The position numbers and the translations under genes were made by a program. 64,000 nt of DNA from Escherichia coli (GTDB lineage Bacteria > Pseudomonadota > Gammaproteobacteria > Enterobacterales > Enterobacteriaceae): assembly GCF_009931435.1 (NCBI RefSeq), contig NZ_CP043414.1; one strand, 5' to 3'. Numbering within the stretch: position 1 is the stretch's first letter; each line of letters opens with the position of its first letter. The notes under the pieces are model-generated. The model saw only the letters and a list, made by a program, of their open reading frames with translations, did no database searches and had not been told where the DNA came from. This document shows positions 56,977 through 59,470 of this stretch, one piece after another.

Positions 56977-57624
56977 GTGAAGCTATACATTTACGATCAC
57001 TGCCCTTACTGCCTCAAAGCCCGCATGATTTTCGGCCTGAAAAATATCCCCGTCGAATTACATGTTCTGCTCAATGACGACGCAGAAACACCCACCCGGA
57101 TGGTCGGTCAAAAACAGGTTCCCATTCTGCAAAAAGATGACAGCCGCTATATGCCAGAAAGCATGGACATCGTTCACTATGTCGATAAACTCGACGGCAA
57201 ACCGTTACTGACCGGCAAACGTTCACCTGCCATTGAAGAATGGCTGCGCAAGGTCAACGGCTACGCCAACAAACTGCTGTTACCGCGTATTGCCAAATCG
57301 GCATTTGATGAGTTTTCTACTCCCGCCGCACGCAAATATTTTGTCGACAAGAAAGAAGCCAGCGCGGGTAATTTTTCCGACCTGCTGGCCCACTCTGACG
57401 GTCTGATTAAGAATATCAGCGATGATTTACGTGCGCTGGACAAACTTATCGTCAAACCGAACGCCGTGAATGGCGAACTTTCGGAAGACGATATTCAGCT
57501 ATTTCCGCTCCTGCGTAATCTGACGCTGGTAGCCGGAATCAACTGGCCAAGCCGCGTTGCTGATTACCGCGATAATATGGCGAAACAGACACAAATCAAT
57601 TTGTTATCATCAATGGCGATTTAA
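56977..57624 (+). CDS. grxB: Glutaredoxin 2
   Basis: 215-aa ORF MKLYIYDHCPYCLKARMIFGLKNIP with CPYC active site. Confidence 0.93.
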   Translation: MKLYIYDHCPYCLKARMIFGLKNIPVELHVLLNDDAETPTRMVGQKQVPILQKDDSRYMPESMDIVHYVDKLDGKPLLTGKRSPAIEEWLRKVNGYANKLLLPRIAKSAFDEFSTPAARKYFVDKKEASAGNFSDLLAHSDGLIKNISDDLRALDKLIVKPNAVNGELSEDDIQLFPLLRNLTLVAGINWPSRVADYRDNMAKQTQINLLSSMAI

Positions 57625-57757
57625 TCCTGACCCGCCGCGGCAGCCTGTATTCGCGGGTTGCCGCCGTTTTCAGTTTTTTCTGCTGGCGAGTTTATCGCTG
57701 GTGACACATGCTGCGTTGTGTCAGGATATTGACGCAGATTTCATGTCGAGGACTACC

Positions 57758-58318
57758 ATGAACAAGTTTTTATTTGCCGCTGTATTGTTCGTCAGTGGCC
57801 TGCTCGTTGGCTGTAATCAACTCACCCAATACACCATCACCGAACAAGAAATTAACCAGTCGCTTGCGAAACATAATAATTTCTCAAAAGATATCGGTTT
57901 ACCCGGCGTGGCTGACGCCCATATTGTTCTGACAAACCTGACCAGCCAAATTGGTCGCGAAGAGCCGAATAAGGTTACCCTAACCGGAGACGCCAATCTG
58001 GACATGAACTCCCTGTTCGGTAGCCAGAAAGCGACCATGAAACTGAAGCTGAAAGCGCTGCCTGTGTTTGATAAAGAAAAAGGCGCGATCTTCCTGAAAG
58101 AGATGGAAGTAGTCGATGCGACGGTACAACCGGAAAAAATGCAAACGGTGATGCAAACGTTGCTTCCCTATTTGAACCAGGCATTACGCAATTACTTTAA
58201 CCAGCAACCTGCTTATGTCCTGCGCGAAGATGGCAGTAAGGGCGAAGCAATGGCGAAGAAACTGGCGAAAGGTATTGAAGTGAAGCCTGGTGAAATTGTC
58301 ATTCCGTTTACTGATTAA
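57758..58318 (+). CDS. yceB: Lipoprotein YceB (DUF1439)
   Basis: Start at internal ATG (MNKFLFAAVLFVSGLLVGCNQL, lipobox LVGC) gives 186 aa. Confidence 0.85.
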   Translation: MNKFLFAAVLFVSGLLVGCNQLTQYTITEQEINQSLAKHNNFSKDIGLPGVADAHIVLTNLTSQIGREEPNKVTLTGDANLDMNSLFGSQKATMKLKLKALPVFDKEKGAIFLKEMEVVDATVQPEKMQTVMQTLLPYLNQALRNYFNQQPAYVLREDGSKGEAMAKKLAKGIEVKPGEIVIPFTD

Positions 58319-58324
58319 TCACGA

Positions 58325-58349
58325 GGGCGCATTTGCGCCCTTTATTTTT
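58325..58349 (+). terminator. Rho-independent terminator downstream of yceB
   Basis: Hairpin gggcgc-attt-gcgccc followed by tttattttt. Confidence 0.7.
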
Positions 58350-58355
58350 CGTGCA

Positions 58356-58373
58356 AAGGAAAACGTTTCCGCT
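58356..58373 (+). promoter_or_regulatory. PurR operator in the pyrC promoter
   Basis: Palindromic core GGAAAACGTTTCCG matching the PurR box core AAACGTTT, about 50 nt upstream of the pyrC ATG. Confidence 0.6.
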
Positions 58374-58423
58374 TATCCTTTGTGTCCGGCAAAAACATCC
58401 CTTCAGCCGGAGCATAGAGATTA

Positions 58424-59470
58424 ATGACTGCACCATCCCAGGTATTAAAGATCCGCCGCCCAGACGACTGGCACCTTCACCTCCGCGATGGCGACATGTT
58501 AAAAACTGTCGTGCCTTATACCAGCGAAATATATGGACGGGCTATCGTAATGCCCAATCTGGCTCCGCCCGTGACCACCGTTGAGGCTGCCGAGGCGTAT
58601 CGCCAGCGCATTCTTGACGCCGTACCTGCCGGGCACGATTTCACCCCGCTGATGACCTGTTATTTAACAGATTCGCTGGATCCTAATGAGCTGGAACGTG
58701 GATTTAACGAAGGCGTGTTCACCGCTGCAAAACTTTACCCCGCAAACGCAACAACTAACTCCAGCCACGGCGTGACGTCGGTTGACGCAATCATGCCGGT
58801 ACTTGAGCGCATGGAAAAAATCGGTATGCCGCTACTGGTGCATGGTGAAGTGACACATGCAGATATTGACATTTTTGATCGTGAAGCGCGCTTTATTGAA
58901 AGCGTGATGGAACCGCTGCGCCAGCGCCTGACCGCGCTGAAAGTCGTTTTTGAGCACATCACCACCAAAGATGCTGCCGACTATGTCCGTAACGGAAATG
59001 AACGGCTGGCTGCCACCATCACTCCGCAGCATCTGATGTTTAACCGCAACCATATGCTGGTTGGTGGCGTGCGTCCACACCTGTATTGTCTACCCATCCT
59101 CAAACGCAATATTCACCAACAGGCACTGCGTGAACTGGTCGCCAGCGGTTTTAATCGCGTATTCCTCGGTACGGATTCTGCGCCGCATGCACGTCATCGC
59201 AAAGAGAGCAGCTGCGGCTGCGCGGGCTGCTTCAACGCCCCAACCGCGCTGGGCAGTTACGCTACCGTCTTTGAAGAGATGAATGCTCTGCAGCACTTTG
59301 AAGCATTCTGTTCTGTAAACGGCCCACAGTTCTATGGCTTGCCGGTCAACGACACATTCATCGAACTGGTCCGCGAAGAGCAACAGGTTGCTGAAAGCAT
59401 CGCATTGACTGATGACACACTGGTGCCATTCCTCGCCGGGGAAACGGTACGCTGGTCCGTTAAACAATAA
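58424..59470 (+). CDS. pyrC: Dihydroorotase
   Basis: 348-aa [36 protein letters not shown]... Confidence 0.95.

Follow-up and report, generated by a model that had tools for sequence, protein, structure and literature searches.

The PUR box in the pyrC promoter of Escherichia coli and its distribution among the Enterobacterales

The yceB-pyrC region

The plus strand of a 64-kb stretch of Escherichia coli DNA (the window; all positions below refer to it unless a locus is named) carries mdtH, grxB, yceB, pyrC, dinI, bssS, and solA, in the orientation opposite to that in strain K-12. The 1.8 kb between positions 57700 and 59500 matched 5425 of 5426 complete E. coli genomes, and the RefSeq annotation under these matches describes YceB as a lipoprotein and PyrC as dihydroorotase. 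The identity over this segment was at least 99% in only 11 of the 5425 genomes and 95-99% in the rest. As so few genomes are this similar over 1.8 kb, while the promoter block described below is identical in 99% of them, the window likely comes from an under-sampled lineage of E. coli.

The features of the region are listed in Table 1. The start of yceB was placed from the length of the K-12 gene (561 nt) and from the signal peptide that begins with MNKFLFAA. The yceB terminator (GAGGGCGCATTTGCGCCCTT followed by a T-run) lies 3' of the yceB stop codon, which ends at 58318; its folding energy was -15.2 kcal/mol (z = -5.25), and none of 200 shuffled sequences was equally stable. The spacer between yceB and pyrC is 105 bp long. 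An earlier note on this DNA had placed a PurR-type operator in this spacer, 3' of the terminator of yceB and 5' of the start of pyrC, and the coordinates agree with this placement: a 16-bp sequence, hereafter the box, lies between the terminator (58323-58349) and the pyrC ATG (58424).

Table 1. Features of the yceB-pyrC region (positions in the window)
Feature	Position	Strand	Basis and remarks
yceB CDS (lipoprotein), upstream neighbour	57758-58318	+	ORF and RefSeq annotation
yceB intrinsic terminator	58323-58349	+	Terminator scan; 8-bp GC-rich stem (AGGGCGCA/TGCGCCCT), then T-run
-35-like hexamer GTGCAA, putative, pyrC promoter	58351-58356	+	3/6 consensus matches; 17 bp 5' of the -10 hexamer
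Probable PurR operator (PUR box), AGGAAAACGTTTCCGC	58357-58372	.	PWM, conservation, literature; central CpG at 58364/58365
-10 hexamer TATCCT, pyrC promoter	58374-58379	+	5/6 positions invariant; first base is the start of the PyrC_leader match
PyrC leader, Rfam RF02372	58374-58423	+	Covariance-model match, hairpin arms
Alternative start sites, putative	58386-58388	+	From the description in PMC6524683
pyrC CDS (dihydroorotase), regulated gene	58424-59470	+	ORF of 348 aa, RefSeq annotation, orthologues

A generic sigma-70 scan of positions 58250-58470 called no promoter, the hexamers GTGCAA and TATCCT being weak. The assignment of the pyrC promoter depends on the description in the literature, the Rfam leader, and conservation; the TGCAA of the -35-like hexamer was invariant in 15 taxa. 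The box occupies the 17-bp spacer between the two hexamers, approximately from -30 to -15, and a single base separates it from TATCCT. That is, it lies within the promoter of a gene of nucleotide metabolism. A PurR motif between the -35 and -10 elements is the commonest arrangement among PurR-controlled promoters (14 of 32, 44%; Cho 2011, PMC3159470).

Judging from the description in PMC6524683, in which the C starts are 6-7 nt past the -10 hexamer, transcription of pyrC would start at C58386 or C58387 when the CTP/GTP ratio is high and at G58388 when it is low. With two extra C residues at its 5' end, the transcript can fold into a hairpin in which the ribosome-binding site is sequestered (PMC6524683). 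In the window, TCCGGC (58385-58390) and GCCGGA (58406-58411) form the two arms, and the 3' arm covers the Shine-Dalgarno sequence GGAG (58409-58412). The predicted hairpin had a folding energy of -8.7, -5.6, and -3.6 kcal/mol for transcripts starting at 58386, 58387, and 58388, respectively, and no hairpin was predicted for a start at 58389. The CCGG at the start sites was invariant in the alignment of orthologous promoters, and so were the hairpin arms across genera; the loop was variable. The Rfam PyrC_leader model was matched along its entire length (1-50), with 68.7 bits (gathering score, 50; E = 5e-11). This leader adjoins the box and belongs to the same control region, but it senses pyrimidines at the RNA level and is mechanistically independent of a PurR box acting at the DNA level.

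Among 12 other loci scanned with the RF02372 model, only that of Citrobacter (L003) reached the gathering score, as the window did. Other Enterobacteriaceae (L014, L015, and others) have the invariant hairpin arms with longer loops, and 48-67 nt between the -10 hexamer and the ATG. The model seems to be narrower than the true spread of the leader element.

Sequence and symmetry of the box

The earlier note had described the 14-mer GGAAAACGTTTCCG as a palindrome. This 14-mer occurs once in the window, on the plus strand at 58358-58371, inside the interval 58350-58380 to which the note referred. It is not self-complementary: five of its seven symmetric pairs about the central CG match, which makes it an imperfect palindrome. 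The description is correct for the core AAACGTTT (58361-58368), a perfect palindrome and the sole perfectly self-complementary part of the 14-mer. The functional register is the 16-mer at 58357-58372, a CpG-centred imperfect dyad with five of eight symmetric pairs and the perfect 8-bp core, which is the form of a PUR box. The GGAAA and TTTCC arms have their centre of symmetry elsewhere, at C58364. The core octamer is unremarkable by itself (two occurrences in the window, 1.7 expected).

We scored the window with a position weight matrix (PWM) built from the 28 motif instances found under in vivo ChIP-chip peaks of PurR (PMC3159470, Table 1). As pyrC is not among these instances, the matrix is independent of the pyrC site. 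The PWM scan proposed in the earlier note ranked the box (17.0 bits) first among the roughly 128,000 positions of the window, both strands counted. Genuine PurR sites scored from 8.4 to 24.6 bits when each was left out of the matrix in turn, and the pyrC box is in the middle of this range. Sequences generated with a first-order Markov model are expected to contain about 0.29 hits of at least 17 bits per 64 kb, and the chance of such a hit in the 105-bp spacer between yceB and pyrC is about 4e-4.

The box agrees with the PWM consensus ACGAAAACGTTTGCGT at 13 of 16 positions, the departures being at positions 2, 13, and 16. When a symmetrised half-site model was applied (consensus ACGCAAAC), the box scored 10.4 bits in its left half and 7.2 bits in its right half; the sum of 17.5 bits exceeds that of 13 of the 28 real sites. 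With 10.4 bits, the left half (AGGAAAAC / ACGAAAAC) is a near-consensus PurR half-site, and the right half has GTTTCC where the PurR consensus has GTTTGC.

The next-best hits of the PWM in the window were at 1420-1435 on the minus strand (GCGCGAGCGTTTGCGT, 14.1 bits) and at 57213-57228 on the minus strand (12.3 bits, in grxB). Both are within ORFs and have lower scores, and both are probably chance matches.

Comparison with known sites, also suggested in the earlier note, bore out the relationship to PurR operators. The box has the same locus and sequence as the PUR box of K-12 pyrC (Choi & Zalkin 1990, J Bacteriol 172:3201; Wilson & Turnbough 1990, J Bacteriol 172:3208), and in the alignment the K-12 promoter did not differ from the window in the box or in the sequence that flanks it. 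The pyrD operator CGGAAAACGTTTGCGT (PMC3159470, Table 1) is identical to the box at 13 of 16 positions, with GGAAAACGTTT in both. Like pyrC, pyrD is a pyrimidine gene with modest PurR control and start-site switching that responds to CTP/GTP. The two differ in the right half, which is the consensus TTGCGT in pyrD and TTCCGC in pyrC, and ChIP-chip detected pyrD but not pyrC. The canonical operators of pur genes (purF, purT, and purHD, among others; consensus ACGNAAACGTTTGCNT) are likewise 16-bp CG-centred imperfect dyads that lie over the promoter. A full-text search with the operator sequence returned no paper in which the pyrC site is printed and found only a near-identical site of Haemophilus influenzae purB; this predicted hflD-purB PurR site (AGGAAAACGTTTCCGT) is identical to the pyrC box at 15 of 16 positions.

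Conservation and origin of the box

Orthologous loci were collected with one genome per species, which gave 80 pyrC loci; Salmonella was not among them. The box was present in all 16 loci from the family Enterobacteriaceae, with scores of 14.6-19.1 bits at 57-82 bp 5' of the ATG. These loci are from Escherichia albertii, Citrobacter, Kluyvera, Pseudocitrobacter, Superficieibacter, Pseudescherichia, several Enterobacter and Klebsiella isolates, and Mangrovibacter, among others. The conservation in related enterobacteria, whose lack the earlier note had named as a refutation, was therefore observed within the family, and it ended there: in the other loci from Enterobacterales, the PWM scan found no site above 7 bits in the 250 bp upstream of pyrC. 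The absence of the box from Yersiniaceae, Pectobacteriaceae, Erwiniaceae, Hafniaceae, and Morganellaceae sets a boundary of the regulon.

In the Enterobacteriaceae alignment, the central AACGTTT of the box was invariant. After near-duplicate Escherichia rows were dropped, 10 of the 16 columns of the box and 7 of the 8 columns of the core were invariant. The TGCAA, the box, TATCCT, and the CCGGC block were near-invariant, as was the distal GCCGGAGC. Between genera, the sequence 5' of the -35-like hexamer and the hairpin loop were scrambled, and so were the terminator region and the spacer between the Shine-Dalgarno sequence and the ATG (mean majority fractions of 0.33 and 0.41, respectively). 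Conservation within the family was about equal throughout the 39-bp promoter block 58352-58390, with the box no more conserved than the hexamers; thus, the box is not singled out by conservation alone.

Six types of substitution were seen in the box, with a mean cost of 0.68 bits in the PWM against 3.23 bits for all 48 possible substitutions (P = 0.0098), and this pattern is compatible with the specificity of PurR. The consensus G at position 13 was found in none of the orthologues.

Of 5423 E. coli genomes, 5372 have the 47-bp segment 58346-58392 without any difference from the window. Among the 51 genomes with a non-identical segment, the one variant inspected was that of isolate SC476 (water, USA), which has a G to A substitution at box position 3 (L082:74, corresponding to 58359). 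This is a high-information position, with G in 53 of 56 half-sites, and the SC476 sequence may represent a natural weak-operator allele.

The comparison with the sister families is more informative than conservation within the family; their promoters were anchored on the -10 hexamer and examined in the region about 60-115 bp 5' of pyrC (L016-L028 and L031, with pyrC at position 1501). These promoters have a common skeleton, [G/A]TGCA[A/T], 16 bp, TTAT[C/G/T][C/A]T, and CCCGGC or CCCCGCC, which is kept in Rahnella, Yersinia, Pectobacterium, Brenneria, Acerihabitans, Hafnia, Edwardsiella, Erwinia, Rosenbergiella, and Photorhabdus. Across the Enterobacterales, [G/A]TGCA[A/T] is 16-17 bp away from TTATCCT. 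The 16-mers homologous to the box scored from -1 to -31 bits in the sister families, and their left halves were unrelated and varied freely. To the right, the spacer sequence CTTT[C/A]CGC is common to Yersinia, Pectobacterium, Rahnella, and Brenneria, which do not have the full box.

Judging from these alignments, the box looks like an innovation specific to the Enterobacteriaceae; it seems to have arisen when the left 8-9 bp of an older promoter spacer were remodelled, beside a TTT[C/A]CGC that was already there and resembled a PurR half-site. An ancestral constraint of the promoter, rather than PurR, may keep position 13 off the consensus G and the repression weak.

PurR-like sequences were also seen at other pyrC loci. 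In two Yersinia species and Erwinia endophytica, 16-mers of 18.4-19.8 bits are present inside the pyrC coding sequence at about +570 (AGGCAATCGTTTTCTT in L017:2070-2085; AGGCAATCGTTTCCTT in L018:2070-2085 and L021:1396-1411). They lie on codons for G-N-R-F-L and are missing from most relatives, and their carriers have no promoter box. They could be a coincidence or a roadblock site like that in purB. In Photobacterium piscicola, the only species of Vibrionaceae for which a locus was retrieved, a PurR-like box (CAGCAAACGATTGCTT, 15.2 bits; L060:1382-1397) lies about 90 bp 5' of pyrC; pyrC may have been recruited independently to a PurR regulon there.

PurR control of pyrC and other explanations

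E. coli encodes PurR, and studies of PurR operators have established that PurR binds a CG-centred dyad as a dimer loaded with hypoxanthine or guanine. The purR gene is outside the 64-kb window and is located near 1.74 Mb in K-12 (PMC3159470). The direct repression of pyrC by PurR is credited to Choi & Zalkin (1990) and Wilson & Turnbough (1990) in papers that cite them, which also attribute to Choi & Zalkin (1990) the binding of PurR at pyrC in vitro. In Cho (2011, PMC3159470), direct repression by PurR is given as "experimentally determined" for pyrC, which is also counted among the pyrimidine genes that respond to the deletion of purR. According to Charlier et al., PurR represses pyrC and pyrD modestly, to an extent similar to the 3-4-fold effect at carAB P1, and pyrC much more weakly than the pur genes.

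PurR was not detected at pyrC by ChIP-chip either with or without adenine (Cho 2011, PMC3159470). Together with glnB, pyrC is one of only 2 of the 15 classical PurR sites that were not recovered, and Cho et al. did not explain this result (PMC3159470). A weak half-site does not account for it, as the pyrC box is in the middle of the range of in vivo sites in the half-site model. The result could be genuine, with the box unoccupied in ordinary growth and conserved for another factor or for conditions outside those tested, although we regard this as very unlikely.

Taken together, AGGAAAACGTTTCCGC at 58357-58372 is very probably the operator through which PurR, a member of the LacI/GalR family, represses pyrC, as the earlier note had proposed. 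The motif match, the placement in the promoter, the lineage-specific conservation, and the PurR-compatible substitutions were observed in the present study; the binding of PurR and the PurR-dependent repression of pyrC are taken from the literature.

The conserved spacer might instead serve only the promoter or the selection of the start site, with no purine control and with a coincidental resemblance to a PUR box. The conservation of the entire block 58352-58390 rather than of the box alone fits such a role, as does the failure of ChIP-chip to reveal PurR at pyrC, and a 17-bit match somewhere in 64 kb is not rare. As the right half TTT[C/A]CGC is present in the promoters of Yersinia, Pectobacterium, Rahnella, and Brenneria without a full box, part of the conservation of the box is indeed related to the promoter and not to PurR. 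However, the sister families have the same skeleton with left halves that vary and score far below a PurR site, which means that the promoter does not require AGGAAAACG. The fixation of AGGAAAACG in the Enterobacteriaceae thus needs another constraint, which PurR binding supplies, and promoter function alone fails to explain the invariance of the box. A match of this quality is also rarely expected by chance within the short spacer, the substitutions track what PurR tolerates, and direct repression by PurR is reported, according to the citing papers, from both genetics and biochemistry. A role in the promoter only is therefore improbable. It is more improbable still that the box is the operator of another repressor of the LacI/GalR family (such as Cra/FruR, RbsR, or CytR), acting instead of or besides PurR. 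Operators of this family commonly have a CG-centred dyad with A/T-rich inner positions. The similar dyads, the shared AACGTT core, the deviation of the right half GTTTCC from the PurR consensus, and the ChIP-chip result would all be compatible with another family member, but the left half is nearly the PurR consensus, the full box falls among true PurR sites, and the literature that we searched gave no evidence for another such regulator.

The remaining two explanations are extremely unlikely. Fur is listed as a second regulator of pyrC in networks derived from RegulonDB, in which the inputs to pyrC are PurR and Fur, and within 58250-58500 the sequence closest to the 19-bp Fur consensus (58359-58377, 11 of 19 positions) overlaps the PUR box. 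Yet 11 of 19 is a background value, reached or exceeded at 246 positions of the window on the strand scanned, and nothing in the Fur consensus corresponds to the conserved core AAACGTTT. Equally doubtful is a structural role of the GGAAA and TTTCC arms as a DNA or RNA hairpin, for example in terminating read-through from yceB. In Escherichia, the arms are perfect over 5 bp with a 3-nt spacer, and they are flanked by a longer inverted repeat, CAAAGGAAAA/TTATCCTTTG, with 9 of 10 positions paired. Most other genera, however, have CGAAA for GGAAA and TCCTTAG for TCCTTTG, so that both dyads decay without compensation, and the lack of covariation in the alignment contradicts a conserved hairpin. In addition, a real and strong yceB terminator is present 9 bp upstream, and the element itself lies upstream of the pyrC start sites. 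The inverted repeat CAAAGGAAAA/TTATCCTTTG (58354-58363 and 58373-58382; 10 nt, 90% complementary) brackets the box and the -10 hexamer in Escherichia; it falls to about 7 of 10 pairs in other genera without compensation and is thus probably fortuitous. Neither it nor the GGAAA/TTTCC pair was retained as a functional dyad, as they are not maintained in other genera.

If the box is the operator of PurR, the repressor, loaded with its corepressor hypoxanthine or guanine, would bind as a dimer to the imperfect dyad around the CpG at 58364/58365. Since the box fills the spacer between the -35 and -10 elements, steric occlusion of RNA polymerase is the likely mode of action; bound PurR would compete with the polymerase and, when purines are abundant, lower initiation slightly. 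Such control would be layered on a separate and stronger pyrimidine control of pyrC, the two being independent and additive. In the latter, the CTP/GTP-sensitive choice between C58386/C58387 and G58388 would decide whether the hairpin hides the Shine-Dalgarno sequence.

The pyrC box is the site described since 1990 and is already known. The comparative analysis makes a minor addition, namely that the box is confined to the Enterobacteriaceae and seems to be a later insertion of the missing half-motif into an older, more widely conserved pyrC promoter, the spacer of which already held the other half. The site is a textbook example of cross-talk between purines and pyrimidines, in which a purine-sensing repressor trims the synthesis of a pyrimidine enzyme and would thereby help to balance the nucleotide pools.
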